Of a stretch of 53,328 bases of DNA, positions 34,246-50,478 are shown piece by piece. Positions within the stretch are counted from its first letter, which is position 1. Every line of letters begins with the position of its first letter. The stretch comes from an uncultured Gammaproteobacteria bacterium (GTDB lineage: Bacteria; Patescibacteriota; Microgenomatia; Levybacterales; UBA12049): positions 778,627-831,954 of the forward strand of contig OZ246394.1 in NCBI GenBank assembly GCA_965230895.1, in the 5' to 3' direction. The translations under genes were made by a program, and so were the position numbers. Under the pieces are notes generated by a model. The model searched no databases. It saw only the letters and a program-made list of their open reading frames with translations, and had not been told where the DNA came from.

Positions 34246-34282
34246 ATAAAAAAGCCCATGTATTGCGTTTGCAATAATGGGC
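34246..34282 (-). terminator. Intrinsic-terminator-like hairpin plus U-tract
   Basis: Minus strand reads GCCCATTATTGC-AAAC-GCAATAcATGGGC followed by TTTTTT. The hairpin is 34254-34282 and the T-run 34248-34253. It ends 12 nt before the ATG of 33978-34235. Confidence 0.6.
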
Positions 34283-34301
34283 AAGTTATTTGTTGAAGTA
34301 T

Positions 34302-34331
34302 TTTATACCAGAGAAACTAGATTGAAGTCAA
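34302..34331 (-). promoter_or_regulatory. Candidate promoter of the T4SS operon
   Basis: Minus strand: TTGACT (34331-26), 18-nt spacer, TGgTATAAA (-10 at 34307-02). Confidence 0.5.
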
Positions 34332-34388
34332 GAAGGAATATATAGAAATTCTAATAAACATCTTGTATTTACAGCATTTGAAAGGGAA

Positions 34389-35321: not shown

Positions 35322-35508
35322 GTGTTTCTATAATTGTCATAAGTTTTTCTTCAGGAACTTTGTTGGGGTCAAAGGTAACTTCTGTTTGTTGCTTGGCATA
35401 GCTTGTGCTTGATTCTTTAACTCCATTGGTATCTTCAAGTCCCCCATCAATATTAAATGCACAACTTGTGCAATGCATTCCATTTATGTTAAATTTTATA
35501 GTTTTCAT
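35293..35508 (-). CDS. copZ: HMA-domain copper chaperone
   Basis: MKTIKFNINGMHCTSCAFNI (MxCxxC). Start moved to ATG 35508. Confidence 0.85.
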   Translation of the reverse strand: MKTIKFNINGMHCTSCAFNIDGGLEDTNGVKESSTSYAKQQTEVTFDPNKVPEEKLMTIIETLGYEATIYE

Positions 35509-35510
35509 AG

Positions 35511-36560
35511 TTATATTACATTTATTGTTCCACGAAACATTCCCATACTGCACATAAAAGCAAGCTCTCCTGGTTCTGTTGGAGCTGTAAAGGTAATTTT
35601 ATCTGATGAACCAATTGGAACAACTTTTTGGATATTCATTGAAGGAAGTGTAAATGATTGTGTACATCCTCCTCCACCTGTATTTTTAAGATTTAACGTA
35701 ACTTGAGAGCCTGCTTTAACCGTTATGTTATCTGGATTGTACCCGGACTCTTCAATGGTAATTGTAGCTTCGTTAACTGGTCGAGCTTTTGCATTACTTT
35801 GGGTGGCAGCGCTTGCTACGGAGGATGAAACTTCACAATAACTAATCGCACAGAAGAAGTTCTTGCTGATATTCTCAAGTGTTATCTTACTTCCTGTAAG
35901 TGCCAGAACATTATTGAGATTAAAGACAGCAAGAAGGATAAGTGCAAATGCCGCAAGTTTGGTAAATTTTTGCTGCATACTTTCTCCAAGCCGAGTTGCT
36001 AAGTAGCCAAATACGAAGAATAGTGGAGATGTTCCAAGTACAAATGCAAAGAGAATAGCTGCACCTGAAAGAGGGTTACCTGATGCAATTGCAAGCGCCA
36101 TCATTGCCTGTGTAGTGCCGCATGGGATAAATACAGTAAAGGCACCAACAATTGCTGGAGCTAATATACTATTACTTTTCGACTCTTTTCTAACTAATCG
36201 TGTCAAGAAACGGGGAGGTTGGATAATAAAATAACGGAATATTGGATGTACATTAAGTAAATTAAACGCTGTACCTAACATGAAAATGCCAACTGCAAAT
36301 TGTAGTACAATATTTGCAGTAAGAGATAATTGGAATAGAGAGCCAAACCATCCAAGTAAAAATCCAAGAATAGTATAAGCTGCAAGTTTAGCCGCTAAGA
36401 AAGAAAGTATAGGAAGTGCGTTCCCAGAACGCTTAGTATCTTCTTTTAGTTTTTGTTCATGACGTTGAGCTATTGTGGCAGCCAATAAGCCACCTTGTAC
36501 TGCAAGGCAGGTTAACGCGCCTGCAAATAATCCTGTTAAAAAAATAGTAATTAAGTTCAT
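35511..36560 (-). CDS. DsbD_2/TauE-like permease fused to a C-terminal cupredoxin-like domain
   Basis: TCLAVQGG and FIPCGTTQ membrane Cys motifs. C-terminal ITVKAGSQVTLNLKN..LAFMCSMGMFRGTINVI. Confidence 0.6.
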   Translation of the reverse strand: MNLITIFLTGLFAGALTCLAVQGGLLAATIAQRHEQKLKEDTKRSGNALPILSFLAAKLAAYTILGFLLGWFGSLFQLSLTANIVLQFAVGIFMLGTAFNLLNVHPIFRYFIIQPPRFLTRLVRKESKSNSILAPAIVGAFTVFIPCGTTQAMMALAIASGNPLSGAAILFAFVLGTSPLFFVFGYLATRLGESMQQKFTKLAAFALILLAVFNLNNVLALTGSKITLENISKNFFCAISYCEVSSSVASAATQSNAKARPVNEATITIEESGYNPDNITVKAGSQVTLNLKNTGGGGCTQSFTLPSMNIQKVVPIGSSDKITFTAPTEPGELAFMCSMGMFRGTINVI

Positions 36561-36562
36561 AG

Positions 36563-36991
36563 TTATTCTATAATTATTTTACCCGTCATCCCTAGTGCCT
36601 TATGATTTTTAACTGAACAGTAATATTCAAATGTGCCTATTTTGCTTGCTGCAAATTCAACTGTTTGTGTATCTTTTTCTTCAAGCAATTGAGTCGCCAC
36701 ATTTAATTCATCAATTCTAAAATCATGTAGACCTTCAATATTATGGAATATTATCTTTATTGTTTCTCCTTTTTTGACACGCATTAGACCGGGCTGAAAC
36801 ATATAGTTTGATCCAATAACATCAAACTCGCGCACATTGCCCATGAGTGTGCCAGTTACTGAACTCTGCTGAGTATTTTGTAACATATCCTCTTTGTTGT
36901 CCCAGCCAAATAAATCACTAAGTGGCTTATACATTGACAAAGCTAGGAAAAAAATAAGTATTCCTATGGTTATTTTCTTCCAAGTTGGCAT
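36563..36991 (-). CDS. Membrane-anchored type-1 cupredoxin (plastocyanin/amicyanin-like)
   Basis: EGLHDF ... YYCSVKNHKALGM (H, C-x4-H-x4-M ligand pattern). Confidence 0.75.
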   Translation of the reverse strand: MPTWKKITIGILIFFLALSMYKPLSDLFGWDNKEDMLQNTQQSSVTGTLMGNVREFDVIGSNYMFQPGLMRVKKGETIKIIFHNIEGLHDFRIDELNVATQLLEEKDTQTVEFAASKIGTFEYYCSVKNHKALGMTGKIIIE

Positions 36992-37058
36992 AATTTAAGT
37001 CTACGACTAATTGTAGTAGATCATTGTAAATATATCAACTTCTTTAATTACCATATTA

Positions 37059-37655
37059 TTATTGATCGAGCTGAGCATATACAACTAATCGTTCAGCATA
37101 AGTATTAGATTTGTCATTCCAAGTTCCCTGACAGGTAATAAGGTTAAGCATAGGTTTTTCAGAATCTCCAAACACTTCCTTTAAAGGAAAGTTATCATAA
37201 GGATATTTAGCTAGCTTAATCACTGAAAAAGTTTGTTTTTCCCCTTTATCATCAATTACTGTGATTTTATCTCCTTTTTGAAGTTTGTTTAAGTCCCAGA
37301 AGACAGCGGGAGAGCCATCCTTTTTATCATAATGACCTGCAAGCACTGCGTTTCCAGTCTGCCCTGGTAGAAACCCTGGTTTGTACCAGGCTGTGTTATC
37401 TGCGTCTTTTGGTACATCCATTCTACCTTCCTTGTCGTTTCCAACTTCTTCAATATTGGTGTCTACATTGATACTTGGTATTTGAACTTTTTGAGGTATA
37501 CTTGGCTGAGATTTCTTAATAGAATTAGCAGTTTGTTCTTTATTTATTTGGGCAGAAAGTACTAATTGTTTATCGGAATTTGAGAGATAAGCTCCAGCCC
37601 CTATTCCTACAGATATACCTATAATAATGATTAATGTTATTAATTTATTTTTCAT
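37059..37655 (-). CDS. Sortase-family transpeptidase (class E/F-like)
   Basis: N-terminal TM, LAGHYD, LNLITCQG (TLxTC), ERLVVYA (Arg). Confidence 0.8.
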   Translation of the reverse strand: MKNKLITLIIIIGISVGIGAGAYLSNSDKQLVLSAQINKEQTANSIKKSQPSIPQKVQIPSINVDTNIEEVGNDKEGRMDVPKDADNTAWYKPGFLPGQTGNAVLAGHYDKKDGSPAVFWDLNKLQKGDKITVIDDKGEKQTFSVIKLAKYPYDNFPLKEVFGDSEKPMLNLITCQGTWNDKSNTYAERLVVYAQLDQ

Positions 37656-37667
37656 AAATATTTTTTA

Positions 37668-37708
37668 GAACATGATGCGTTAATAATTTATTTTAACGCA
37701 TCATGTTC
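37668..37708 (-). promoter_or_regulatory. Perfect 16-bp stem hairpin between the small peptide gene and the sortase
   Basis: GAACATGATGCGTTAA (37668-83), 9-nt loop, TTAACGCATCATGTTC (37693-708). No U-tract on the transcribed strand. Confidence 0.6.
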
Positions 37709-37729
37709 CTTAGCTCTTATTAAACCAAT

Positions 37730-37900
37730 TTATTCAGCTCTACCCGTTGCTGGTGCTGAACTTGGCATCGCAGCACTGGTTGTTGGTGTTACTGTTGTCG
37801 TATTATTTGTCGTGTTTGCTGTTTGTGCAAATGTCATTGTTGCCGCTGCCATTGCTGAAATTGCAAATACTCCTGTTGCTATTGTTACTTTTTTAAACAT
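37730..37900 (-). CDS. Small secreted Thr-rich peptide (56 aa)
   Basis: Strong SD GAAAGGAGGTGATAAT before ATG 37900. Signal-like MFKKVTIATGVFAISAMAAATMTFA. Mature part QTANTTNNTTTVTPTTSAAMPSSAPATGRAE. Confidence 0.5.
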   Translation of the reverse strand: MFKKVTIATGVFAISAMAAATMTFAQTANTTNNTTTVTPTTSAAMPSSAPATGRAE

Positions 37901-37961
37901 ATTATCACCTCCTTTCAAATATTTCGTATTAATTAATTTCGACTACTGATGCATGCATTGA

Positions 37962-38816
37962 CTATTTAAGCTGTTGATCTATAACCGTTTTGAATGAACT
38001 CAACGGTTGTGCACCGATAAGTGGCGTACCGATAATTGTACCGTTAGAAGAGGACTTACCGATAAAAAATGATGGGGTTCCAGATGCGCCAACACTTCCT
38101 GCATTCGCTATATCTTTATCTACTTCAGCTTTATATTTACCTCCATCAAGGCAAGCTTGCAGATCATTACCATTGAGTCCTAAGTCATCAGCTATAATTG
38201 GAAGTTGATCAAGCGCAAGTCCCGTTCCATTAGATGTGGTTCGCTTAAATATCTCGTCATGATATTTGAAATATATTTCGTCTCCGCCTTGTTCTCTAGC
38301 ACATTCTGCTGCCTCAGCTTCCTTAGGTGCATTTTGATGGAAAGAAAGGGGCAGATCACGATACACAAGTTTTACTTTCCCTGTATCGATATATTCCTTT
38401 TTTAGCTGTGATAATGTATCGTCGTAAAATTGTTTGCAAAATGGGCACTCATAATCAGAAAATTCAATAATTGTTACTTTTGCATTTTTATCTCCCAAAA
38501 TAGGATCATCATCGATTGATACTTTTTTAGGGCTTAAATCTTCAGTAGGAACAGCTTGTGGTGCTTGAGCATTGTTTGCTGCTTGAACAGTAGAAGGACT
38601 AGTTGTGTTTGCTTTTTGAGCACCCTCTAAGTACAGTACTTTATTTGTTAACATTCCTAGCATAAATGCAAAAATAATTAATACGATAGTAAGAAAGCCA
38701 TTGGTGGTACGAAGAAAAGCAAATTTTGGAATTGCTATATTTACATAACCTGAAGATTTTTCTTTTTCTACCTGGGTTAATTCTTGATTTTTTACTAGAG
38801 AAGAATTTTTTGGCAT
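37962..38816 (-). CDS. Membrane-anchored DsbA-family thiol:disulfide oxidoreductase
   Basis: FSDYECPFCKQFY (CxxC) thioredoxin fold, with an N-terminal TM. Confidence 0.8.
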   Translation of the reverse strand: MPKNSSLVKNQELTQVEKEKSSGYVNIAIPKFAFLRTTNGFLTIVLIIFAFMLGMLTNKVLYLEGAQKANTTSPSTVQAANNAQAPQAVPTEDLSPKKVSIDDDPILGDKNAKVTIIEFSDYECPFCKQFYDDTLSQLKKEYIDTGKVKLVYRDLPLSFHQNAPKEAEAAECAREQGGDEIYFKYHDEIFKRTTSNGTGLALDQLPIIADDLGLNGNDLQACLDGGKYKAEVDKDIANAGSVGASGTPSFFIGKSSSNGTIIGTPLIGAQPLSSFKTVIDQQLK

Positions 38817-38828
38817 AACGAGTTTATC

Positions 38829-38866
38829 TACTACACAGTGTAGTAATAGATGATGGCCTATGTCAA
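38829..38866 (-). promoter_or_regulatory. Candidate promoter with a 17-bp perfect palindromic operator (BlaI/CopY-type TACA..TGTA box)
   Basis: Minus strand: TTGACA (38866-61), 18 nt, TACACT (38842-37). Palindrome TACTACAC-A-GTGTAGTA (38829-38845) covers the -10. Confidence 0.55.
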
Positions 38867-38884
38867 GTGTAAGTTTACTACGGG

Positions 38885-39898
38885 TTAATGCTTAACAGGA
38901 GAATACATATGCGAAGCCTTTTGTATTGGTTGCTCTTTACTGCTTGATGTTGAAGGAAGTGCATTTAAATTTTGCTCGCTTTTACATGAGTTCATGCATG
39001 CTCCATCTGTGCAGAGCATAACGACATCATGGTCTACATGATGGACTTCTTCTGCGTATATAGGACTTACCATAACAACTCCAACAAGGAATGTCGAGAA
39101 AAGGGTAATAAGCAAATGCTTTACTCTAAATAGCCTACGTCCATAATCCTTATCTAGTAAGAAATATATTCTTGGTTCAAGTGTGTCATAATCCGCAATT
39201 GATGCAAGTGCGACATTCTTCATAGATGGAAATGCAAGAAGTTTTTTCAGTGCTGAGACGAGAGGATATTGAGAACCTACTTTGTTGATTGCAAATGTAT
39301 CAGCTTTTATTTCCCTATCTATACGATATTTTTTAATAAAATCTCCGAGTAATGGAAAAAATGGGAGAAGCGAATACGCTACCGAAGCGATTATCATAGT
39401 AAAGGTATCATGATTTTCGAGATGGTACTGCTCGTGTCGTAATACAGCTTCGAGTTCTTTTTGATTAAGTTTTGCCACTATACCTGTCGATATATAAATC
39501 TTTGGACTTTTTATTCCAAGGCAATAAGCAAAGGGCTTATCAGATTTAATAATAATTGTCTCTTGCTCTAATCCCAAATGTGTTAATAGCGTAAACAAAT
39601 TTTTATGAACAATTTTTTTATCATGTAATTTTCGTCGCAGTATAATTACTTTAATACTTAAAACAATAAATTTTAGAAATGAGACAGCGACGAGTAAAAA
39701 AAGTATAACAAGAGGTGTAATGCTTAAAAAATAGGGGATAGGTTCTATGTATGTTGTAATAAATGATTGACAATAATAGACTGCATGATTAAGCAATGGA
39801 GTAAGCTTTTGAGCAATGATAAATAACAGACTGCTTGCTGTCAAAACTAATCCAGAAAAAAAAACAAGATTTTTATTTACGTTTATCATACTCATCAA
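38885..39898 (-). CDS. BlaR1/MecR1-family M56 membrane metalloprotease without a penicillin-binding sensor domain
   Basis: RHEQYHLENHD (HExxH) in a polytopic protein. Tail after the last TM: EEVHHVDHDVVMLCTDGACMNSCKSE. Overlaps the BlaI-like gene. Confidence 0.8.
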   Translation of the reverse strand: MMSMINVNKNLVFFSGLVLTASSLLFIIAQKLTPLLNHAVYYCQSFITTYIEPIPYFLSITPLVILFLLVAVSFLKFIVLSIKVIILRRKLHDKKIVHKNLFTLLTHLGLEQETIIIKSDKPFAYCLGIKSPKIYISTGIVAKLNQKELEAVLRHEQYHLENHDTFTMIIASVAYSLLPFFPLLGDFIKKYRIDREIKADTFAINKVGSQYPLVSALKKLLAFPSMKNVALASIADYDTLEPRIYFLLDKDYGRRLFRVKHLLITLFSTFLVGVVMVSPIYAEEVHHVDHDVVMLCTDGACMNSCKSEQNLNALPSTSSSKEQPIQKASHMYSPVKH

Positions 39899-40259
39899 GC
39901 ATGTCCAAAAAATATTGTCGTTTTTTTTCTGGTAAATTGTCTACACTCTCTGCAAAAGAAGCGATAGCTGTATCGCCATATGAATTTATAAATTTTCTTA
40001 AAAATGATTGGGCGATACTCTTACTATATTTTTCCTTCGTAATTTTTGGTGAATATAGATATCCGTTCTTATCTTCTTTTCGGTCTAGCAAACCTTTATC
40101 AAATAGCCGTTGTAGTATAGTTGCTACTGTTGTATAAGCAAGCTTTTTGTCTTTTTCAAGTACTTTAAGAACATCTCTCCCTGAACAACTTTTATTTTCC
40201 CAAAGTATATCCATGATCTTTTGTTCTAATTCTCCCAAGGTAGTTGATTTCATGTCCAT
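39873..40259 (-). CDS. BlaI/MecI/CopY-family winged-helix repressor
   Basis: LGELEQKIMDILWE..AYTTVATILQRLFDKGLLDR. No C-terminal CxCxxxxCxC copper motif. Confidence 0.85.
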   Translation of the reverse strand: MDMKSTTLGELEQKIMDILWENKSCSGRDVLKVLEKDKKLAYTTVATILQRLFDKGLLDRKEDKNGYLYSPKITKEKYSKSIAQSFLRKFINSYGDTAIASFAESVDNLPEKKRQYFLDMLDEYDKRK

Positions 40260-40309
40260 ATAATACCAGACATGCTATAAGATTTACAATCATGACAGAA
40301 AATTATTGG

Positions 40310-41299
40310 TCATTTCAAGTATTTGTTAAATACTTCTTTAGTTCTTTCAGCAATTAGATCCCAACCTAAGTTTCTAAAGTTGTGATCCTGTCCTTCGTAT
40401 TCAAAGTATTCAACTTGTTTACCTTCTTTTTTGAGTGCCGTATTAAGTTCCCGTGACCACTCAGGGTTTACTTCTGTATCCTCAAGTCCTTGGTGGATGC
40501 TTATTGGTGCAGTAAGATATGTGAGGTAATTAATAGGAGAAACACTCTTTAAGCTTGGATTAATTGAGACAGAACCTTTGTTAGTTCTTCCATAGAATCC
40601 TAAATTATCTGCTGCATCAGCACTTGTAGGTGCCCACAGAACAATTGCTTTAACTTTATCTGTTACTTCAGCAGTTCTTAAAGATACCTCTCCTCCCATA
40701 CTATGTCCCCACATGCCAATTCTATTTGTATCCGCTTGTGGAATGTTTTTTATTGAAGCAATAAGATTCAAAACATCAATAGCATATTCTGGACGATGTC
40801 CACCTCTATTGCCTGAATCGTTCTCTGAATTACCATGCCCTCTGTAATCTGAGGCAAGAGTAATATAGCCTTCTGGTACTAGTATATCTGCAATATTTCG
40901 AGTGCCATCACCGCTTTTAAATTCAGTTGGAGAATAATAACCATGATTAAGAACTATAATTGGAAACGGTCCTTCTCCTTGTGGGATATTCATCACTCCA
41001 TAGATTTTTAAATTATCGGAGGGATAGGAGATTAAATAACTAGTATAAGGATCCGATTGAGCAAGCGTTTTTTCAATTTTGATATCTCCACCTGTAAAGT
41101 TTCTCTTGCGTAAATCTTCAATAAAATTTGGAGAACTTCCGATTGTATTTTCAAGTGAATGATCTGTCTCCAGTGCATTATCTTGTGATTTACTATCTGG
41201 TTGTTTAGGGTTAGCAATTTTAAAACCTTGCCATAATACAAATACTCCCAAACATAAAAGTACAAGTAATGCGATAGTTGACGTTTTTTTTAATTTCAT
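40310..41299 (-). CDS. Secreted alpha/beta hydrolase (S9/dienelactone-hydrolase-like)
   Basis: GMWGHSMGG nucleophile elbow. Start chosen at MKLKKTST (41299). Confidence 0.7.
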   Translation of the reverse strand: MKLKKTSTIALLVLLCLGVFVLWQGFKIANPKQPDSKSQDNALETDHSLENTIGSSPNFIEDLRKRNFTGGDIKIEKTLAQSDPYTSYLISYPSDNLKIYGVMNIPQGEGPFPIIVLNHGYYSPTEFKSGDGTRNIADILVPEGYITLASDYRGHGNSENDSGNRGGHRPEYAIDVLNLIASIKNIPQADTNRIGMWGHSMGGEVSLRTAEVTDKVKAIVLWAPTSADAADNLGFYGRTNKGSVSINPSLKSVSPINYLTYLTAPISIHQGLEDTEVNPEWSRELNTALKKEGKQVEYFEYEGQDHNFRNLGWDLIAERTKEVFNKYLK

Positions 41300-41316
41300 A
41301 GTGGATTTAATAGTTG

Positions 41317-42021
41317 TTAATGCGTAGACCAAGAAATTATTTCGTTTAGGTTTTCATTTTTCTTTATTTTACTGATTACTTTATTAGTATTGGTTGCTAT
41401 TACATAGATATCACTATCTTTTGAGTTTCTTGTATATAGTTTTGTTGCATCTTTCGATAGTGCTACTTCATGAGGTAGGCTTTCAGGTTGTAACTGTATC
41501 ATTTGTTCAACTTTATAATTTGAAGTATTTATTTTATAGATAGCATTCCCTGTCTCAGCTGCTATATAAGCAGACTTATTATCTGGCGTAAAGACAAGAT
41601 CACCCAGATGTATGTTATTTCCCATTTGTATCCTTTCTTTAACAGTATTTGTACTGAGATCAATTACTAGTACTTGGTCGCTTGTCATCATCAGATGCAG
41701 GTGTTCTTTGGCATTTCTATGAAATGCGCTTAGCTGATCCTGAGAAGCACTTGCTGTTACCCAAACATATTGTTTACTTGGTGCCATTTGAATATCATGA
41801 GGGGAAAGTTCTACCGTAATGTTTTCCTCCTTAGAAGAAAGACTAATTGAAGTAATTTCTTTATTTGTCTTTGCATCCTCAATAATAACTTGGTTTCCCA
41901 CAGCCTTAAAAACAAGTTCTTCCGAGTTTGACTTTAACCTATCGGAAAATATAAATGAGATTGCACCAATTGCAATAATGACTACAAGAATAATTCCAAT
42001 TAATATTTTTTTCTTATGCAT
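41317..42021 (-). CDS. Membrane-anchored YVTN-type beta-propeller repeat protein
   Basis: N-terminal TM. Repeated ..YVWVTASAS.., ..AYIAAETGNAIYKINTSNYKV.., ..LYTRNSKDSDIYVIATNTNKV. Confidence 0.55.
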   Translation of the reverse strand: MHKKKILIGIILVVIIAIGAISFIFSDRLKSNSEELVFKAVGNQVIIEDAKTNKEITSISLSSKEENITVELSPHDIQMAPSKQYVWVTASASQDQLSAFHRNAKEHLHLMMTSDQVLVIDLSTNTVKERIQMGNNIHLGDLVFTPDNKSAYIAAETGNAIYKINTSNYKVEQMIQLQPESLPHEVALSKDATKLYTRNSKDSDIYVIATNTNKVISKIKKNENLNEIISWSTH

Positions 42022-42039
42022 AGGGTTTGATGTTCCTAA

Positions 42040-44265
42040 TTAAATTTTCACTCGCTTTAGAAGTAGCGAATTTGTAACTACAGATATTGAACTACTTGCC
42101 ATAGCTACAGAGGCAAAAATAGGATTAAGGAGAGGTCCTCCAAATGGAAAGAGAACCCCCATAGCAACGGGAATGAGCACGATATTATACCCAAATGCCC
42201 AGAACAGATTCAGTTTTATTGTTCGCATTGTCTTTTTAGACAGTTCAAACGCTGCTGCTACACTTCGCAAATCTTTATTAATAAGTGTTATATCAGCAGC
42301 TTCAATGGCAATATCAGTTCCTGTTCCCATAGCTATACCCACATCAGCAGCCGCAATTGCAGGAGCATCATTAATTCCATCACCAACCATTGCTACTTGT
42401 TTGCCTTCTGCTTGTAATTTTCGTACTTCTGCTTCTTTCTGATCAGGTAAGACTTCAGCGAGTATTCGTTTAATTCCAAGTTGCGAAGCGATAGCCTTTG
42501 CTGCTCTTTCGTTATCACCAGTGATCATAATAACTTCTATGCCTCGTTTTACAAGCCGAGCAACGCCCTCTTTGGCTGTATCCTTAATCGTATCTGCAAC
42601 GGCAATCAGCCCAAGGAGCTTTCCCTCAGATGCAAGAAGCATAACTGTTTTGCCTTCATTCTCAAGTTTCTCAATGTCATACTGAACTTGTTTCAGGATC
42701 TCTATTTTCTCTCTATCCATTAATCGCTTATTGCCAAAGAATACTTTTCTCTTTCCGATAGTTCCTTCAACCCCATGTCCAGCAATACCATTAAACTTTG
42801 TTACAGGGAAGACTTTTACTTTCTGAGTTTCAGCATATTTTACAATTGCTTCAGCTAGTGAATGCTCTGAGCCTTTTTCGATAGATGCAGCAAGTTCTAA
42901 TACATCATCCTTTTTAGCTTTATTGAGTGGAATAATATCCGTTACTTCAGGTTTACCTTTGGTAAGCGTGCCAGTTTTATCAAACACAATTGCAGTTATC
43001 TTATTAGCAATTTCCAAACTGGATGCTTCTTTGAAAAGTATCCCATGTTCCGCACCTTTTCCAGTACCCACCATAATCGCTGTTGGAGTAGCCAATCCCA
43101 TTGCACAAGGACATGCAATGATAAGAACTGCTACTGTATTAAGTAGAGCAAAAAGAAATGCAGGGTTTGGACCAAATATATACCAGATACCAAATGTTAA
43201 AAAGGCAAGCATAATAACTATTGGGACAAAGTAGGATGAGACAACATCTGCAAGCTTTTGGATTGGTGCTTTACTGCCTTGTGCTTCTTCGACGAGCTTT
43301 ATAATTTGAGCAAGCATAGTATCTGAACCTACTTTAGTCGCTTTATAGGTAAAGGATCCGGTTTTGTTGATCGTTGCCCCAATGACCGTGTCTCCTTTTG
43401 CAATATCGACAGGTATACTTTCTCCTGTAACAACCGATTGATCGATACTTGATTCACCATCAATGACCGTTCCATCAACTGGGATTTTCTCACCTGGTCT
43501 TACTCGAAGAACATCACCAATTTGTACCTCTTCAAATGGAATATCCACTTCTTTGCCCTCTCGTATTACTCGGGCTGTTTTTGCTTGCAGTCCAATGAGT
43601 TTTTTAATCGCCTGAGAAGTTCCTGATTTCGCTTGGGCTTCAAAATACCTCCCTAAGAGAATAAGTCCAATGACGATCACAGAAACATCGAAATAGGGCA
43701 TATGTTCTATACCTAAGTTCATGACCACTTCAGGGAAAAATGTAACAAATACTGAATATGCAAAAGCCACTGTTGTTCCAAGTGCCACCAATGTATCCAT
43801 GTTTGCTGTGCGATGTTTTAAAGCAGGTATTGTTGCCTTATAAAATTCTAGTCCTGCCCAAAATTGAATTGGTATAGCAAGCAATAATTGTGTGAAAGGA
43901 TTTTGCAAGATTGCTGGTGCTGTATTCATCAAACCGGGAAAACTTCCCCAAAGTAAAAACGCTCCAGAGGTCAGACTAGCAATAACCTTTACTTTGAGAT
44001 TGGCCAGCTCTTTTTTCTTTTCTTCTTCTCTCAGTTCTTCATTTTTTTCTTTGAGATCTAATGTATATCCTGTTTGAGAAACTGATTCAGCAAGCTGCTC
44101 TGGAGTGCAGTTATTTTCATCATAGGTGACAGTTGCTTTTGTTGTTGCTAAATTCACTACAGCATCTGTAACCCCAGGTGTTTTCTTCAACGCCCGTTCT
44201 GTAACTCTAACACATGAAGCACAATGCATGCCTTTAATTGGAAATGATTTTTTAACTTCACTCAT
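42040..44265 (-). CDS. copA: Cu(I)-translocating P1B-type ATPase
   Basis: HMA GMHCASC, CPC in the TM region, [15 protein letters not shown]. Confidence 0.95.
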
Positions 44266-44267
44266 AT

Positions 44268-44627
44268 TTATGTAACTATGATTTTCCCATGGAACATATT
44301 CATACCACAGGCAAAACCAAATTCTCCTTTCTCTTTTGGCGTTACTTCAATCGTAACTTTTTTATTGAGCGGCAAATATTTTTTGATGCGGAAATCTCCT
44401 AATACAACTTCTTCCAAACAACTTGAAGGGTCTTTTCTCGTGAATGAAATTCTTGTAGTTTTATTTACGGGTATAGAAATAGTATTGGGAGAGTAACCAC
44501 CTTCAACTGTAATATCTACAGAGTCAGTAACAGAAAAAACTTCTTCTTTTTTCATGAGGAAGAACCAATAAGTAAAGGTCATTCCTGCTAGCATAAATAG
44601 TGCGACTAAAATTTTATCAAGTTCCAT
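44268..44627 (-). CDS. Membrane-anchored cupredoxin-like domain protein
   Basis: Start moved to MELDKIL (SD AAGGAGGT upstream). [17 protein letters not shown], the same C-x-M-x-M-F-x-G motif as the tail of 35511-36560. Confidence 0.6.
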
Positions 44628-44680
44628 AATTTGTGTTACCTCCTTGGAAGAAGCGCAGATTTGCACCTCTTCTAAAAAGA

Positions 44681-45103
44681 TTACTGGGTAAATCCCCAAT
44701 CTTTTTGCCATTGTTGCATTTGGCTAATTTCACTTTCTTGTGCAGAAATAATGTTTTTGGATAGATCTTTTATTTCTTGATGACCTGCATTTGCTTCAGC
44801 TGCTTTTGCCATCTCAATAGCACCTTGATGATGAGCAATCATTCCTTCAATAAATGCTTTATCAAAATCATCACCAGACTTACCTTCTAAAGCAGTCTTC
44901 ATATCTGCCATACTCATTTGATCCATTGTCGTACTACCATGAGTCATTCCTTCCATTGAGTCATTTGATGGAACCATCGCTGATGGTGTTGTATTAGTTG
45001 TTGCTAATTTTGAAGCGGCCGTCATTTGGCTTGCTACAACTGTTCCAGAAATTACAGCTCCTACAATTAAACCAACAATTCCATATGTTAATGTTTTTTT
45101 CAT
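44681..45103 (-). CDS. DUF305-family (ferritin-like four-helix) metal-resistance protein
   Basis: DKAFIEGMIAHHQGAIEMAKAA and ISAQESEISQMQQW. Confidence 0.75.
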   Translation of the reverse strand: MKKTLTYGIVGLIVGAVISGTVVASQMTAASKLATTNTTPSAMVPSNDSMEGMTHGSTTMDQMSMADMKTALEGKSGDDFDKAFIEGMIAHHQGAIEMAKAAEANAGHQEIKDLSKNIISAQESEISQMQQWQKDWGFTQ

Positions 45104-45122
45104 ATATTCACCTCCTTTACTT

Positions 45123-45911
45123 TTATTTTACCGTTACTATTCCCCCGATACTTGCGTTAATGTGATCGTGATATGTCCATACACCTTTTTTATCAAAGAC
45201 ATATCGATATATACTGCCTTTTTTCGTTGGCTTGAACTGGTCAAATGTTGGTAAATCTGTATGGGATGGATGGGGAGCTGAAGCAACCCACATATCAGTA
45301 CTACTTTCGTTAACAAATTCAACCATACTACCTTGAGTGACTTCAATTTTCTCTGGTATAAAACCTTTGTCAGTATATTTCACTTTTATCATACTTTGCA
45401 TACCAGCCATATTGTGGCCCAACATTGCTGAAGAATCACCTTCGGTAATAGTAGCGGGGAGTGATTTGCCTGTTTTAACATAATTAGCTGTCATCGTCCC
45501 GTTTTCGTCTAACATCGGACGGTCAAAATCATTAAATACCCCATCATCTCCATAATCCTCGTAAATCATCACAATAAGTTTTTTATTAGAAATATCTGCA
45601 TTTCCTAACGGTATAGTTATATTTGCGTATGTTCCTTTATCTAAAGGTTTACTTATCTCCACAACTTGACTTAGCTTATCTCCTTCCATCTCACGTACAA
45701 CAAGAAATCCTTTTTTTGATAAAGTTACGCTTTTAACGAGTACTTTATCTTTTGGTTCTTGAGGAAATACTTGTAATGTCTCTTGTTTTGTAGTCTTATT
45801 TCCTGATGCGTTCTTCTCATGTTTATCTGTCTGTTGATTAAAATAAAGGTAGAGTCCAAAAGCTACCATTAAAAATAGTACAAATGTAATTAGTATTTTT
45901 TGTATCTTCAT
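45123..45911 (-). CDS. Membrane-anchored protein with a C-terminal cupredoxin-like domain
   Basis: N-terminal TM. C-terminus FIPEKIEVTQGSMVEFVNES..HPSH..WTYHDHINASIGGIVTVK. Confidence 0.5.
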   Translation of the reverse strand: MKIQKILITFVLFLMVAFGLYLYFNQQTDKHEKNASGNKTTKQETLQVFPQEPKDKVLVKSVTLSKKGFLVVREMEGDKLSQVVEISKPLDKGTYANITIPLGNADISNKKLIVMIYEDYGDDGVFNDFDRPMLDENGTMTANYVKTGKSLPATITEGDSSAMLGHNMAGMQSMIKVKYTDKGFIPEKIEVTQGSMVEFVNESSTDMWVASAPHPSHTDLPTFDQFKPTKKGSIYRYVFDKKGVWTYHDHINASIGGIVTVK

Positions 45912-45913
45912 AT

Positions 45914-46186
45914 CTAACTTTTTTTCTTAAATACTTGCATTACTTCATTTATTGTTTCTTCTTTATTTCCTTTGCTAATCGCGTCCGCAACACAAGTCTT
46001 TAAATGGTTTTCTAGAATGACATTTCCAGTTTCCTTTAATCCGCTTTGCACTGCCTGCAATTGATGCATAACATCAATGCAATACGTGTCAGTCTCGACC
46101 ATGGAAATAACTTTATCAATGTGTCCTCGAGCAATCTTTAATCTGTGAAGAATTCGTTCTTGTTGATCTTTTGGTCTATAAGCCAT
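45914..46186 (-). CDS. csoR: CsoR/RcnR-family metal-sensing repressor
   Basis: RLKIARGHIDKV..DTYCIDVMHQLQAV..HLKTCV (C-H-C ligands). Start at ATG 46186-84. Confidence 0.85.
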   Translation of the reverse strand: MAYRPKDQQERILHRLKIARGHIDKVISMVETDTYCIDVMHQLQAVQSGLKETGNVILENHLKTCVADAISKGNKEETINEVMQVFKKKS

Positions 46187-46235
46187 ATATCCCCCCAATA
46201 GGGATATATTACTACACCCTGTAGGAGATTGTCAA
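46185..46235 (-). promoter_or_regulatory. Candidate cargo-operon promoter carrying two operator-like boxes
   Basis: Minus strand: TTGACA (46235-30), 18 nt, TAATAT (46211-06). The spacer holds TACTACAC-c-cTGTAGgA (46210-26, plus-strand reading). ATATATCCC-N7-GGGATATAT (46185-46209) overlaps the csoR ATG. Confidence 0.55.
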
Positions 46236-46415
46236 TATGTTTAATGAAGCATCTAAAATGCACTATCGGAAATAAAAAAAACATTTCGGAGGATACTGTA
46301 CAAAGTTTTTTATAGTCTGTGGAATATATAAGAAGCAATTCACGTTATCAGTTCTTCTAGAACATCATTAAAGGTACTATTGATACTATCCGTGTCATTT
46401 TTTGCTATCTCTCCT

Positions 46416-46667
46416 TTATCTATTTTTTTTTTCAAGTTTTAATATCTTTTCTGTCGCAATCATAAGATTGTTTTCTATTTGAACATGTTTTTGATTATGA
46501 ATGGCGTGAGTTACCCCAAATACAATATCCAACGATTCGTCTTCGTCTAAAAAGAGTAAAATTTTTGTCATAAGCAGGGTGTGCATATTATCGCTCGAAA
46601 AAAGATCATTCTGCCAACCTTTATCTTGCAATTGCTTTTTTAGCTCTTCTGTAGTATTCATAATCAT
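46416..46667 (-). CDS. Hypothetical small protein, divergent from the XRE gene
   Basis: 83-aa ORF with no recognised motif. Confidence 0.4.
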   Translation of the reverse strand: MIMNTTEELKKQLQDKGWQNDLFSSDNMHTLLMTKILLFLDEDESLDIVFGVTHAIHNQKHVQIENNLMIATEKILKLEKKNR

Positions 46668-46709
46668 TAACTAATGACTTAATAAAATAGTCATTTTTAA
46701 TCTTAAATA

Positions 46710-46725
46710 TTAAGTTATAACTTAA
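46710..46725. promoter_or_regulatory. Perfect 16-bp palindrome TTAAGTTATAACTTAA in the divergent intergenic region (operator candidate)
   Basis: Self-complementary, 35 nt upstream of the XRE ORF. AT-rich, so chance occurrence is plausible. Confidence 0.3.
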
Positions 46726-46760
46726 TAAACTTTTTGTCAAGTTCCTGCTACGTTTAAGGA

Positions 46761-46988
46761 GTGAATACGAAAAAAAAGATTTCCCAAAAAGACTATAAAT
46801 TTGCACGATATCTTCAAAAAATTAGGCAATCAAAAAATGTCACGCAAGAAGAATTAGCTGAAAAGATTGGCGTGTCACAAACGTGGATTGCTTATATTGA
46901 AACTGGCAGGAATAAACCTAACTTAAAAATGCTTGAAAAGATAGGAAAAGCCTTAGGTGTGAAAGTAAAAGATTTAATTCCTTTTTAA
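46761..46988 (+). CDS. XRE-family HTH regulator
   Basis: QKIRQSKNVTQEELAEKIGVSQTWIAYIETGRNKP. The GTG start overlaps the SD-like AAGGAG, so the start is uncertain. Confidence 0.75.
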   Translation: MNTKKKISQKDYKFARYLQKIRQSKNVTQEELAEKIGVSQTWIAYIETGRNKPNLKMLEKIGKALGVKVKDLIPF

Positions 46989-47119
46989 TTTCATAATACG
47001 GATTATACAATATATATATTATATACCTGTTATAGCAACTGTACTCTCTTAAAATTTTCTGTTATTATACTTTTTCTAATCAAGCCTCTGTCCACTTAAA
47101 TATTCTGCCTCAGAATGCC

Positions 47120-49606
47120 GTGTACAATTATCAATTATTTACCAATTTAGATAGTATTCCTAATCTCTTGTTTTTTACTTTTCTTTTTTGTTTCATGATT
47201 GCTCTCATTTGTAAGCTAATATATATCTGGCTAAAAATTCGCTCAAATTACTCATTGCTTGAAGTTATTCCACCACATACAGCCAAACAAAGTCCTTTTG
47301 CGACTGAACAGTTTTTTACGACATTGCATTCGCTAATACAACAAAGGTCAACTATTGAAAAACTTCTTGGAACAAAAAAACTCATTGCACTTGAGATTGT
47401 CTCGAGTAAAAATAGTGGTATAAGATTTTTAGTACGAGTAGTACATGAAGATGCAGCAGTTATCAAGAAATATATACTCTCGTTACTTCCCGGCGCACAA
47501 ATTGCTGTTGTTAATGATTACCTACCAATATCAACACAAGATAACTGGCGTACAGTTACGCTCAAATTAGCAAAACATTTTTCTCATTCTCTTCAGGAGC
47601 AAATACATCTCACTCAGCATGATCCAATGACATATATTACCGGACAAATGACCAACCTTGAGAAAGATGAACTTATTGCTGTGCAATATATTCTCACACC
47701 GGCAACGAAGCAAAGTATTCGACCTGAACTACTTCTTAATCTAATTGCATTTATCATCCTTACACCAACAACACTTGTGAGTTGGCTTATATCCCATGAT
47801 AAGAAAACAGAAGCACTTCCATTTTGGCTGTTTGCTACAAAGAAACATGATAAGAAAGATATTAACGAAAAAGTACAGAAAGAACTCTTTACAGCGACCA
47901 TCAGACTGTATGTGACGCAAACGGCCAGACAGCACGTAACAACTCGTCTCAAAGGGCTTGTTACATCCTTTGCAAGTTTCCGAAGTGCGAACCAACAGGC
48001 ATTGCGTGTAAAGAAACTTTTGTCAATGTTTGCAGAGACTTCTTTGCTGAAAACAGTATTCTTTCTGCAACTGAAATATCGACTGCTTTCTCTAACAAAT
48101 AATCCTGTCCTTTCCACTTCAGAAGTTGCTGGGCTGTTTCATTTCCCAACAGCTTTGAATCAAACAGAAGATATTGTTAAAAGTAAATCCACTATTCTAC
48201 CTGCACCACTTAGTCTGAAAAGGACTGATAAACCATACGATATATTTTTTGCTCAGAATATTTTTGCTGAGACAGTAACTCCAATAGGTCTTACTAAAGA
48301 TGAAAGACGACGACATGTTTATGTTTTAGGAGCTACTGGAATGGGGAAGACAACACTTCTTGCAACAATGATCCGAGAAGATATTAAGAATGGTAAAGGT
48401 GTCTGTGTTATAGATCCTCATGGGAATTTAATTGAACAGATATTACCACTTATTCCAAAAGAGCGAGCAAAAGATGTCATTCTTTTTGACCCAGATGATA
48501 CTGAATTTCCTATTGGTCTCAATTTGCTTGCACTTCCAAAAAATCTTTCGAGTCAGGAGCTTCTACGCCAAAAAGAGCATGTCACGAGTAATCTCATTTC
48601 GGTTATTACAAAAATGTATGCTGCCCGCTTTACTGGGCCAAGAATGGAATATATTCTTCGAAATACGATTCTCACAGCACTTGAAACAGAGCAGCCAACA
48701 CTTTTTACTATCCAACAACTTCTTGTTGATGCCCCATATCGAAAAAAGGTTGTAGCAACACTCAAGAGCCCGATGCTAAAACTCTTCTGGACCAAAGAAT
48801 TTGCCCAAATGGGATCGTTCCAAAAAGCAGATGCAGTCGCACCAATTACGAACAAAATTGGTAAGTTTCTCACATCCTCCCTTGCAGCTAATATCCTCGG
48901 ACAAAAAGAAACAAAGCTTAATTTCTCAGATATTATGGATTCAAATAAAATCCTGTTGTGTGATCTCACAAAGGGGAATATAGGGGAGGATATGAGTACT
49001 ATGTTTGGTTCTCTCATTATTGCAGGAGTCCAACTTGCCGCACAGCGCAGGGCAAGAATTCCTGAAAAGCAAAGAGTGGATTTTTACTTATATATCGATG
49101 AATTCCAAAACTTCGCAACGAGCTCGTTTGCACAAATTATGAGTGAAGCAAGAAAGTATCGGCTCAATGCTATTTTGGCACATCAAACGATTGCCCAAAT
49201 AGAAGATCATGACTTGGTAAAAGTGATTCTTGCCAATACCGGAAGTATTATTAGTTTCCGAACTGGTGGACCACTTGATGAAGAATTTATCCTGCCATTC
49301 TTTGCACCCAATGTCGCCAAAAATGAAATCACCAATCTAACGCCATACCATTTTTATATGAAGATCAATAATGATACGCCGCAAGAGTGTTTTTCAGGAG
49401 AAACAATCTATCAAGAGATTCCAGAAAAGAGAGCATTCATCGACCAAATGAAAACCCACTCAAAAGAACAATACGCAAGTAATAAGAAACAAGTTGAACA
49501 AGAAATTCAGGAAACATTTCTGAATCAGACATCCATACCCAAACGATCAAAAGAGATAAAAAATACCATGAAAAAAGACTTACCAGAAGAGCAAATTCCA
49601 TACTAA
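47120..49606 (+). CDS. VirD4/TraG/TraD-like type IV coupling protein with a long N-terminal membrane extension
   Basis: Walker A GATGMGKTT, Walker B YLYIDEFQNF, RKYRLNAILAHQTIAQ. N-terminal ~370 aa with TM helices. GTG start as in the track is uncertain. Confidence 0.8.
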   Translation: MYNYQLFTNLDSIPNLLFFTFLFCFMIALICKLIYIWLKIRSNYSLLEVIPPHTAKQSPFATEQFFTTLHSLIQQRSTIEKLLGTKKLIALEIVSSKNSGIRFLVRVVHEDAAVIKKYILSLLPGAQIAVVNDYLPISTQDNWRTVTLKLAKHFSHSLQEQIHLTQHDPMTYITGQMTNLEKDELIAVQYILTPATKQSIRPELLLNLIAFIILTPTTLVSWLISHDKKTEALPFWLFATKKHDKKDINEKVQKELFTATIRLYVTQTARQHVTTRLKGLVTSFASFRSANQQALRVKKLLSMFAETSLLKTVFFLQLKYRLLSLTNNPVLSTSEVAGLFHFPTALNQTEDIVKSKSTILPAPLSLKRTDKPYDIFFAQNIFAETVTPIGLTKDERRRHVYVLGATGMGKTTLLATMIREDIKNGKGVCVIDPHGNLIEQILPLIPKERAKDVILFDPDDTEFPIGLNLLALPKNLSSQELLRQKEHVTSNLISVITKMYAARFTGPRMEYILRNTILTALETEQPTLFTIQQLLVDAPYRKKVVATLKSPMLKLFWTKEFAQMGSFQKADAVAPITNKIGKFLTSSLAANILGQKETKLNFSDIMDSNKILLCDLTKGNIGEDMSTMFGSLIIAGVQLAAQRRARIPEKQRVDFYLYIDEFQNFATSSFAQIMSEARKYRLNAILAHQTIAQIEDHDLVKVILANTGSIISFRTGGPLDEEFILPFFAPNVAKNEITNLTPYHFYMKINNDTPQECFSGETIYQEIPEKRAFIDQMKTHSKEQYASNKKQVEQEIQETFLNQTSIPKRSKEIKNTMKKDLPEEQIPY

Positions 49607-49707
49607 AAAGTGTCTATAACGTTACACACAAATAATGGTTAATATTGAGGCTATTATTTAAAAAAGTCTGTCACCCTATCCCTATAAAGAGAGATGAAAT
49701 AATATTT

Positions 49708-50478
49708 ATGCAAAATAAAGATATCACCAAAACGCAAAACAGCATCTTCTTCCTACTCTATAAATTCCGTTTCCTTCATACCAATCAAATCCAAAAACTA
49801 CTCAATCACAAATATAATACACGCATCAATACATGGCTTAACGACCTCACAAAACAAGAATACCTCCAAAGACAGTATGATACACGAACCATTATTAAAA
49901 AACCGGCAGTCTATACATTAACCAAAAAAGCCCGAACACTCTTAAAATCGAATAACAGCTATTCACTGGCAGCCTTAAATAAAATCTATCGTGAAAAACA
50001 CCGATCACAAACCTTTATTACTCATTGCCTGCTTATTGCAGATATCTATTTAACACTGCTATCAAAAAACGGGAAAGACGAAACTATCACGTTTGAGACA
50101 AAAAATACTCTCTCGGACTATGACTATTTCCCCCAAGACATACTTGACGCCTATATCGCCATCAAAAGCCCAACGAGCATCAATCGCTACTTCACAACCG
50201 TAATTGATCCTACTCCTCGTCTGTATATCGCAAAAGGCATTGTACGGCAGTATTTTACCTATTGGCAAAGTAGCAATTGGGAAGAGAACACCGATAAGCC
50301 CTTTCCTGCAATTCTTCTCATTTGCCCTGATGAAAAAGTGCAACGAATGCTGGGTTATTACATTGCCAAAACACTCCATGAAGAACAATCAGATATACAT
50401 TTTTACCTTTCAACATTCGAGGAGGTAAAAAAGAGAGGATTTGTCAATATAACCACCGCTGTAGTATCTTTGGGATAG
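49708..50478 (+). CDS. Replication-relaxation (Replic_Relax-like) family protein
   Basis: N-terminal winged-helix-like IFFLLYKFRFLHTNQIQKLL and the general layout of this family. Lies directly after the coupling protein. Family call from memory of the pattern, not from a search. Confidence 0.55.
   Translation: MQNKDITKTQNSIFFLLYKFRFLHTNQIQKLLNHKYNTRINTWLNDLTKQEYLQRQYDTRTIIKKPAVYTLTKKARTLLKSNNSYSLAALNKIYREKHRSQTFITHCLLIADIYLTLLSKNGKDETITFETKNTLSDYDYFPQDILDAYIAIKSPTSINRYFTTVIDPTPRLYIAKGIVRQYFTYWQSSNWEENTDKPFPAILLICPDEKVQRMLGYYIAKTLHEEQSDIHFYLSTFEEVKKRGFVNITTAVVSLG

Follow-up and report, generated by a model that had tools for sequence, protein, structure and literature searches.

A repeated 17-base palindrome as the very probable operator of a BlaI-like repressor that, paired with a membrane protease, controls copper- and disulfide-handling genes across a group of uncultured ultra-small Patescibacteria

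Does a palindrome repeated in front of copper and thiol-redox genes mark the regulon of a BlaI-like repressor? The question arises from the window, a 53,328-nt stretch of DNA from a CPR bacterium (Patescibacteria), in which a preliminary description had noted a common box at two promoters. Both boxes exist exactly as described, and a third operator and promoter had been missed. The window also contains a conjugative element with copper cargo.

All three boxes follow one 17-bp palindromic pattern, TACTAC-N5-GTAGTA (core CTACA-N3-TGTAG), and the genes behind them all lie on the minus strand. Site A (38829–38845; TACTACACAGTGTAGTA, minus strand TACTACACTGTGTAGTA) is a perfect 17-nt palindrome 3' of the blaR1 stop codon and 5' of dsbA (ATG at 38816). 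As had been proposed, it covers the −10 of the dsbA promoter on the minus strand (38837–38866; TTGACA at 38866–38861, 18-nt spacer, TACACT at 38842–38837), the hexamer occupying box positions 4–9. Site B (46210–46226; TACTACACCCTGTAGGA, minus strand TCCTACAGGGTGTAGTA) sits where it had been placed, between the −35 and −10 of the csoR promoter (46206–46235, minus strand; TTGACA at 46235–46230, 18-nt spacer, TAATAT at 46211–46206), and also extends two bases into the start of the −10. This box is imperfect, with a half-site reading TCCTAC and a G-rich centre, and unlike sites A and C does not enclose the −10. The newly found site C (37002–37018; TACGACTAATTGTAGTA, minus strand TACTACAATTAGTCGTA) lies 10 nt upstream of a cupredoxin ATG (36991), overlapping the −10 of a further minus-strand promoter (37010–37038; TTGATA at 37038–37033, 17-nt spacer, TACAAT at 37015–37010). 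The three sites fall on the −10 or spacer of the region's three best gene-facing minus-strand promoter matches.

Site C redraws the transcription units. The unit behind site A, thought to run on into the cupredoxin, permease, and copZ genes, keeps a membrane-anchored DsbA-like protein with a CPFC motif (37962–38816), a 56-aa Thr-rich secreted peptide (37730–37900), and a sortase (37059–37655); the remainder has its own promoter at site C, followed by the cupredoxin (36563–36991), a DsbD_2 membrane protein fused to a cupredoxin (35511–36560), an HMA/CopZ protein with MHCTSC (35293–35553), and a YtkA-like protein (34389–35321). Behind site B, csoR (45914–46186) is followed by genes for a DUF7282+cupredoxin protein (45123–45911), a DUF305 protein (44681–45103), a cupredoxin (44268–44711), CopA (42040–44265), a beta-propeller protein (41317–42021), and an alpha/beta hydrolase (40310–41332), with intergenic gaps of at most 19 nt from 40310 to 46186.

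With at most one mismatch, TACTAC-N5-GTAGTA occurs three times in the window against 0.067 expected, a count reached by none of 300 Markov shuffles. Matches with two mismatches (1362, 21082, 34559, and 36291) all fall within ORFs, and their number is near chance expectation. The 8-mer TACTACAC, said to be restricted to sites A and B, indeed turns up only three times, including once in each arm of site A, against 0.81 expected; 4 of 100 shuffles attained this count.

Scanning related loci, as the preliminary description had suggested, bore the motif out. Across 24 non-redundant Patescibacteria loci (386 kb), we found 34 perfect boxes versus none in shuffles, and 59 with at most one mismatch versus 0.45, with the consensus TACTACA[A/C]TNNGTAGTA and a 3-nt centre at every site, there as in the window. 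The box (at most one mismatch) lies 5' of blaI in 19 of the 24 loci and 3' of blaR1 in 22. Individual positions are also conserved: One locus (L014) carries a box identical to site A in the same place, between blaR1 and dsbA; the two closest relatives (L035 and L036) share site C, identical in sequence and position; and a syntenic locus (L003) has a perfect box at the csoR promoter position homologous to site B. Genes associated with the box in relatives include dsbA, dsbD2-cupredoxin, HMA, csoR, copA, cupredoxins, and DUF305.

Promoter geometry is equally constrained in these loci. The −10 hexamer occupies box positions 4–9, TTGACA lies 17–18 nt upstream of the −10, and most promoters follow a TTGACA-N15-box layout. 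At 18 of 19 loci, −1 to +6 nt separate the box from the blaI ATG; with the −10 inside the box, many of these promoters are predicted to produce leaderless or near-leaderless mRNAs. The −10, rather than the repressor, may account for the conservation of A[A/C]T in the box centre.

The proposal that the repressor controls its own gene stands only in part. Judging from the relatives, the ancestral layout is apparently a box abutting blaI, which has degraded in the window: Where relatives have a self-regulating box, the window retains an eroded copy and a promoter-like sequence adjoining blaI (40260–40289, minus strand; TTGTAA-18-TATTAT). Self-control would therefore be possible via site B only; it depends on co-transcription of blaI-blaR1 by read-through over ~6 kb from the csoR promoter, and has otherwise been lost.

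We also scanned metagenomes for TTGACA-N14-16-box, a pattern blind to neighbouring genes, and obtained 82 sites. A blaR1 homologue lies directly upstream at 43 of these, and 54 are upstream of homologues of the window's cluster genes. The first downstream gene most often encodes a DsbA (34 sites), followed by DsbD2-cupredoxin (10) and BlaI (5).

The candidate repressor (39873–40259, minus strand; 128 aa, probable start ATG 40253) has a winged-helix Penicillinase_R domain (PF03965; E 3.9e-27, 95.3 bits vs. a cutoff of 22.6). The solved structures nearest to it in the PDB are those of BlaI and MecI from S. aureus and BlaI from M. tuberculosis (1sd4, 1okr, and 2g9w), the mycobacterial protein (Rv1846c, with its BlaR Rv1845c) ranking second among solved relatives by profile search. 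The BlaR that partners M. tuberculosis BlaI has no sensor domain, and the regulon extends past beta-lactamase. Residues A98, A100, S101, F102, and A103 are invariant, and S101-F102 aligns with the scissile bond N101|F102 of BlaI (PMC9834060, PMC1935004). The repressor's C-terminal half has no Cys, and neither a CxC tail nor a CxCxxxxCxC metal site is present. On the CopY/TcrY equivalog model (TIGR02698), it scores 53.5 bits, below the cutoff of 121.95; curated BlaI, MecI, and BlaR1 models all score the repressor/protease pair far under cutoff, and NCBIfam offers no model matching a PetR/PetP-type pair. The relatives of the repressor are all Patescibacteria (CPR), the box tracks orthologues that retain an (L/I/V)AYTT recognition helix, and it was not found at actinobacterial homologues. 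On this evidence the three boxes are, with good probability, operators of the 128-aa repressor; since the palindrome accompanies blaI-blaR1 orthologues at like promoter positions, the regulon originally suggested for it is strongly supported, now with three promoters.

The partner gene, blaR1-like, overlaps the 3' end of blaI and encodes a 334-aa M56/M48 membrane zinc protease (38885–39889, minus strand). It combines PF05569 and PF01435 on a 4-TM frame, with an invariant HEQYH (HEXXH) motif; its predicted structure is closest to BlaR1 (8EXP, E 1.2e-5). The protein ends ~60 residues past the last TM helix, with no match to a beta-lactam sensor (transpeptidase, SXXK) domain and only 35 bits on NF000326 (cutoff 400). 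Conserved instead are an outer-loop YYCQ motif, with Cys40 invariant, and a tail bearing H283, D288, C293, C298, and C302; the structure model has low confidence for both segments (pLDDT <50). No conserved Met pair in the outer loop appears among the listed invariant or nearly invariant columns. Because a conserved His/Cys tail takes the place of a beta-lactam sensor, the protease is likely to respond to copper or thiol stress, an assignment guessed from gene content.

The most serious alternative concerns the signal. The operator and repressor would be as proposed, with disulfide/thiol (oxidative) stress or another thiophilic metal, sensed by the Cys-rich outer segments, in place of copper. 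We regard this as unlikely but worth weighing, given that a DsbA-like oxidoreductase is the commonest regulon member (34 of 82), followed by DsbD-like proteins, that many further members are Cys-rich without a Pfam family, and that three tail Cys and a loop Cys are conserved in the sensor. Copper is favoured by the strong, recurrent linkage to copA, csoR, HMA/CopZ, and cupredoxins, by the His and Asp conserved beside the Cys residues, and by the PetRP precedent; copper itself provokes disulfide stress, so that the two signals may be inseparable.

A different regulator, encoded elsewhere, could instead own the box, with the proximity of blaI-blaR1 reflecting a shared stress regulon. The presence of csoR within the cluster lends this some weight, as do metagenome boxes far from any visible blaI (14 at contig edges, 16 with an unrelated upstream gene). 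Yet CTACA/TGTAG is the half-site of the BlaI/MecI/CopY family, 19 of the 24 loci have the box directly against the start of blaI, a classic self-regulating layout, and loss of the box coincides with divergence of the BlaI recognition helix. CsoR, moreover, has a separate and different G/C-rich box: A CsoR-type operator (46187–46207, minus strand; ATATCCCTATTGGGGGGATAT) abuts the csoR ATG (46186), and the same G/C-rich palindrome precedes csoR in three related loci (L004, L011, and L003). Ownership by another regulator is thus improbable, and the presence of a CsoR-type operator at the site B promoter points to dual control there.

Less probable again is a special promoter core, combining an extended −10 with a start-site element, that an alternative sigma factor would recognise without any repressor. 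The box does include the −10 (TACAAT or TACACT) at a fixed distance from TTGACA and ATG, but promoters of the form TTGACA-17/18-TACAAT are of the housekeeping type, the GTAGTA arm is a mirror image of the arm upstream, a symmetry to be expected of a dimeric binding protein and not of sigma, and both at site B and in front of csoR in L003 the box occupies the spacer without providing the −10. That the palindrome is an RNA/DNA hairpin (a blaR1 terminator or RNA stability element) or a small repeated mobile element is barely credible: A 7-bp hairpin can form at site A, 3' of the blaR1 stop codon, but the three hairpins have little stability (−4.8, −2.8, and −0.2 kcal/mol) and lack a T-run after them, the predicted start point lies downstream of most of the box, no Rfam family matches, and there is no covariation, both arms being fixed in sequence beyond what pairing alone requires.

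Reading the palindrome as a BlaI-type operator invites comparison with characterised systems. By description, the closest analogue is cyanobacterial PetR/PetP (Synechocystis slr0240/slr0241). In both systems a BlaI-family repressor gene is followed by an overlapping M48/M56 protease gene, the protease is BlaR1-like without a beta-lactam sensor domain, and the regulon includes cupredoxins (plastocyanin in the case of PetR). The PetR operator GACA-N3-TGTC (core GAC-N5-GTC) has the geometry of the window's TAC-N5-GTA, with half-site bases TAC in place of GAC, and lies between −35 and −10 at a repressed promoter, as does site B. The systems differ in several ways: Two Met of the TM2-TM3 loop have been proposed to bind copper in PetP, and the window protease instead conserves the loop Cys and the His/Asp/Cys3 tail; PetR additionally activates petJ; and its regulon comprises four cofactor-switch genes, whereas the window's comprises resistance and redox genes. 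Copper-dependent repressor degradation has been shown for PetRP and is predicted for the window pair.

BlaI/BlaR1 and MecI/MecR1 (S. aureus, B. licheniformis) share with the window the PF03965 repressor, the M56 fold with HEXXH, the CTACA/TGTAG half-site, an operator overlapping the promoter, and self-regulation, which in the window would run through site B. BlaR1, however, has 585 aa and a penicillin-binding sensor domain that the 334-aa window protease lacks, and the targets are beta-lactam resistance genes rather than copper and thiol-redox genes. The preliminary description was right to single out the 3-nt spacing, TACA-N3-TGTA, which fits PetR; the operator centre in BlaI/MecI and CopY is 2 nt, with consensus TACANNTGTA for the CopY/BlaI group (PMC7253601, PMC1935004). 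CopY/CopR/TcrY of Firmicutes belong to the same family as the window repressor, control copper export genes, and use a TACA..TGTA box; they have a C-terminal CxCxxxxCxC copper/zinc site, and CopY is released from DNA by binding metal directly, without a partner protease. CsoR/RicR has a homologue encoded at the head of the site B operon and a palindrome at that promoter, where the two systems converge, but its fold and operator are unrelated to the BlaI type and do not account for the TACTAC-N5-GTAGTA boxes.

What is observed is the motif, where it lies, its enrichment, and its conservation alongside blaI-blaR1; that the repressor binds it, that the protease cleaves the repressor, what the signal is, and that blaI is co-transcribed with the csoR operon are inferred parts of one circuit. 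A repressor dimer would bind the palindrome, which at sites A and C covers the −10 and start point of sigma-70-type promoters. At site B the palindrome takes up the spacer and reaches the −10. Once bound, the repressor should therefore exclude RNA polymerase from csoR-cupredoxins-DUF305-copA...(blaI-blaR1), dsbA-peptide-sortase, and cupredoxin-dsbD2/cupredoxin-copZ. Derepression would follow the BlaR1/PetP scheme: The protease would respond to a signal from the envelope, with copper as the likeliest candidate ahead of thiol/disulfide stress, through its outward-facing loop Cys and His/Asp/Cys3 tail, and once activated would cut the repressor at Ser101-Phe102. CsoR, sensing Cu(I) in the cytoplasm, would provide a second check at the csoR promoter.

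More tentatively, at somewhat under even chances, this may be a phylum-wide envelope-stress circuit of Patescibacteria, which would then be among the first defined transcription regulons in CPR. In this reading a BlaR1-type protease has swapped its penicillin-binding sensor for a short extracytoplasmic tail, the tail and loop Cys form a new kind of copper or thiol-redox sensor, a BlaI-type repressor is destroyed, the operator lies within leaderless promoters, and conjugative copper cargo plugs into a resident regulator. The last element follows from the near invariance of recognition helix and box, which would let conjugative elements carry copper cargo that fits the resident regulator.

The predicted regulon is broader than copper handling, since 24 of the 82 metagenome first genes match no protein of the window's cluster; Pfam scans of seven of these assigned no family to five and identified the other two as DUF3105 and BNR/Sortilin-type proteins.

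Three promoters of the copper cluster, in which every gene lies on the minus strand, carry the same box. Site A (38829-38845; TACTACACAGTGTAGTA) is a perfect palindrome that spans the −10 of the dsbA promoter (TTGACA-18-TACACT) 21 nt upstream of the dsbA ATG, and site B (46210-46226; TACTACACCCTGTAGGA) fills the spacer of the csoR promoter (TTGACA-18-TAATAT). Both had been reported in the preliminary description, together with the absence of the 8-mer TACTACAC elsewhere in the window; a window search bore this out, and positions and sequences agree. The 17-bp palindrome TACTAC-N5-GTAGTA describes the motif better. With at most one mismatch it occurs three times in the window against 0.067 expected, and none of 300 shuffles reached three. 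The third copy, site C (37002-37018; TACTACAATTAGTCGTA on the minus strand), sits on the −10 of a TTGATA-17-TACAAT promoter, within the 67 nt that separate the sortase gene from the cupredoxin gene, and was overlooked earlier because its plus-strand reading begins TACGAC.

The box is conserved with blaI-blaR1. Repressor homologues with a source name and most related genome loci are labeled as Patescibacteria/CPR (Levy-, Woese-, Davies-, Gottesman-, and Roizmanbacteria, and WWE3); the best 120 repressor matches share 68-85% identity, with an invariant recognition helix (LAYTT..T.L.RL). In 386 kb of sequence from 24 nonredundant Patescibacteria loci that surround blaI orthologues, the palindrome is perfect at 34 sites and has at most one mismatch at 59 (0 and 0.45 in shuffles). 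At this threshold it precedes blaI in 19 of the 24 loci, ending −1 to +6 nt from the ATG in 18, and follows blaR1 in 22, where it is usually perfect and stands ahead of dsbA, dsbD2-cupredoxin, or HMA genes. Further boxes precede cupredoxin and DUF305 genes and, in the related locus L003, csoR and copA; the syntenic csoR promoter of L003 has a perfect box in the place of site B (TTGACA-N3-box), and site C recurs unchanged in sequence and position in L035 and L036, the closest relatives. In the consensus TACTACA[A/C]T-NN-GTAGTA, positions 4-9 (TACAAT or TACACT) form the −10, with TTGACA 17-18 nt upstream in related loci. At the blaI-proximal and many other promoters, transcripts would therefore have no leader or hardly any, the operator covering −10 to +1. 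The proposed BlaI-like regulon thus stands in its conserved link to blaI-blaR1 and grows from two promoters to three.

We also scanned metagenomes for TTGACA-N14-16-TACTACANTNNGTAGTA, leaving protein information aside. The scan yielded at least 120 stretches, and 82 sites in 80 loci were analyzed. Directly upstream of the box lay blaR1 at 43 of the 82 and a contig edge at 14. The first downstream gene among these listed sites was DsbA-like in 34 cases, DsbD2-cupredoxin in 10, BlaI in 5, DUF305 in 2, and csoR, cupredoxin, or copA once each; in 24 it matched no protein of the window cluster. Pfam scans of seven of these 24 genes assigned DUF3105 to one and a BNR/Sortilin-type family to another and found no family for five, which, like similar unscanned genes, mostly encode Cys-rich membrane or secreted proteins. 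Boxes in the listed sites are tied to blaI-blaR1 and one functional gene class; occurrence at many non-promoter positions, the pattern named beforehand as speaking against a regulon, was not seen.

Pfam and NCBIfam scans assigned the minus-strand gene units. Behind site B follow csoR, DUF7282+cupredoxin, DUF305, cupredoxin, copA, a beta-propeller protein, and an alpha/beta hydrolase, then the blaI-like (39873-40259; 128 aa) and blaR1-like (38885-39889; 334 aa) genes. The site A unit encodes a membrane-anchored DsbA-like protein (CPFC), a 56-aa Thr-rich secreted peptide, and a sortase; the site C unit a cupredoxin, a DsbD_2 membrane protein fused to cupredoxin, an HMA/CopZ protein (MHCTSC), and a YtkA-like protein. 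Compared with most relatives, the dsbA operon of the window is split by inserted peptide, sortase, and cupredoxin genes, the sortase being found in this window only, and site C appears to supply the second controlled promoter of the split operon. The 56-aa peptide (37730-37900 in the window; 9009-9176 in L035) is encoded 3' of dsbA, ends in PATGRAE, and has no Pfam family; in the window the sortase gene follows it, and the peptide could serve as a sortase substrate or be pilin-like.

The repressor belongs to PF03965, and its best solved relatives are Staphylococcus aureus BlaI, Mycobacterium tuberculosis BlaI, and S. aureus MecI. All NCBIfam scores fall far under cutoff, and assignment as a CopY, BlaI, MecI, or BlaR1 equivalog was rejected. 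BlaR1 cleaves BlaI after Asn101 and itself after Ser283, with Phe following each cut (PMC9834060); invariant A98, A100, S101, F102, and A103 of our repressor align to the BlaI N101|F102 scissile bond. It is paired with an M56/M48 membrane zinc protease (HEQYH), whose confident AlphaFold core has BlaR1 (8EXP) as closest fold. The protease ends ~60 residues beyond the last membrane helix and lacks the penicillin-binding domain. Conserved in it are Cys40, in the loop that precedes the second of the long N-terminal helices (presumably a membrane span), and E281, H283, D288, C293, C298, and C302 of the tail. By analogy with BlaR1 topology, loop and tail would face outward; both have pLDDT <50 in the AlphaFold model, where their geometry is unusable and a metal site cannot be claimed.

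In the mechanism we propose, a BlaI-like dimer bound to the box would block RNA polymerase at the three promoters until an envelope signal activates the protease and the repressor is cleaved. Such a system would work like BlaI/BlaR1 and, more closely, PetR/PetP, a copper-responsive system whose operator, GACA-N3-TGTC, shares the N3 geometry of the window box. Copper is the likeliest signal, since CopA, CopZ, CsoR, and cupredoxins abound in the regulon, the candidate sensor carries His, Asp, and Cys, and PetR/PetP, the only characterized sensor-less BlaR1-type system, responds to copper from the same operator geometry. Thiol/disulfide stress is a serious alternative, as DsbA/DsbD-like and Cys-rich proteins dominate the regulon. 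Copper itself causes such stress, and the two signals may therefore coincide. We infer repressor binding, proteolysis, and signal alike from sequence pattern and conservation. CopY identity was rejected: the repressor lacks the CxC tail and metal site of CopY, and its box has N3 rather than N2 spacing. A beta-lactam sensor was rejected because the protease has no sensor domain. An RNA element was dismissed after an Rfam scan of 34000-47200 returned only a sub-threshold chance match, and a hairpin or terminator for weak folding energies and the absence of a T-run.

The repressor had also been taken to control its own operon. No box with up to three mismatches adjoins blaI in the window, so self-control is possible only via site B and would need the compact nine-gene unit to be transcribed as one. 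Alignment with L003 reveals an eroded box remnant, TGGTATTATATGGAC, in the region 40260-40330 before the window blaI, in a 50-nt gap that also holds a promoter-like TTGTAA-18-TATTAT. The box before blaI is likewise eroded in locus L159 (340-440) and absent in L012. In the loci L001-L025, blaI-proximal boxes deviate at position 2 (TGC, TTC, TCC, or AAC) in 13 of 19 cases, and post-blaR1 boxes are mostly perfect; such deviations may keep repression of blaI itself milder than that of the target genes. Site B resembles this deviating blaI-proximal class. Its promoter also bears a CsoR-type G/C-rich palindrome, ATATCCCTATTGGGGGGATAT (46187-46207), which follows the −10 and abuts the csoR ATG; such an element also precedes csoR in L004, L011, and L003. 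The csoR promoter would thus answer to two repressors, one plausibly reporting copper outside the cell and the other cytoplasmic copper.

The cluster is flanked on one side by genes for a large serine recombinase (25473-27044), an M23 peptidase (28685-29440), a VirB4-like ATPase (29442-31607), VirB6/TrbL (32419-33957), and VirB2/TrbC (33978-34235), and on the other by a coupling protein (47120-49606) and a Replic_Relax relaxase (49645-50478). Given these conjugation genes, the stretch 25473-50478 appears to be an integrative conjugative element residing in a Patescibacteria genome, with the copper/BlaI cluster as its cargo, in keeping with what had been assumed. Megablast of 34300-46400 against a plasmid collection matched nothing, which fits a chromosomal element of a CPR bacterium and not a plasmid resembling any in the collection. 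L159 (2,786 bases), which apparently lies on the 1.61-Mb contig that contains the window, is a second copy of the blaI-blaR1-box-dsbA cluster with 78% DNA identity. The recognition helix it encodes is nearly the same as that of the window, and cross-regulation of the two copies is therefore expected. The system illustrates how the cargo of a conjugative element can be tied to a regulator also present in the host. The window sequence was detected in bioreactor metagenomes; transcript searches for the locus returned only DNA metagenomes (bioreactor, rhizosphere) and no RNA containing it.

No account of a BlaI/BlaR1 copper regulon in Patescibacteria emerged from full-text literature searches, and to our knowledge gene regulation in these mostly uncultured bacteria is almost wholly unexplored. 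Here, repressor, putative operator, promoter layout (an operator that contains the −10 and, in many cases, a start without leader), and regulon can be read from sequence across many CPR lineages, and the box could be used to annotate additional regulon members. If the proposed mechanism is true, BlaI/BlaR1-type signaling extends past beta-lactams and cyanobacterial PetRP, with a different candidate sensor module. Metagenomic BlaI/BlaR1 annotations should not be taken as markers of beta-lactam resistance.

Several Cys-rich families outside Pfam are now linked to copper or disulfide stress. Box-controlled Cys-rich membrane or secreted proteins occur in L039 (a 497-aa ORF right after the box, minus strand), L045, L078, L096, L051, L100, L107, and L086, and Pfam scans of those in L039, L051, and L086 found no family. 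Among their motifs are GCSVCSAF, YRPCCGNSTAFPDCNHGMA with a C-terminal GGGCGV, and SCE[FY]CCG..ACGCAHSQAMRG; the proteins represent uncharacterized families tied to the regulon. In L035, overlapping boxes (6051-6070) separate a divergent cation-efflux (CDF) gene from a 174-aa gene located immediately upstream of blaI, and a zinc/cadmium-type exporter may belong to the regulon there. The operator of M. tuberculosis BlaI is possibly an identical N5 palindrome. Upstream of distant Acidobacteriota BlaI homologue genes stand TGCTACAGCATGTAGCA and CGCTACAAGTTGTAGTG (L028, 9962-9978; L034, 9947-9963); the CTACA-N3-TGTAG geometry is therefore not unique to Patescibacteria and is used far beyond them.
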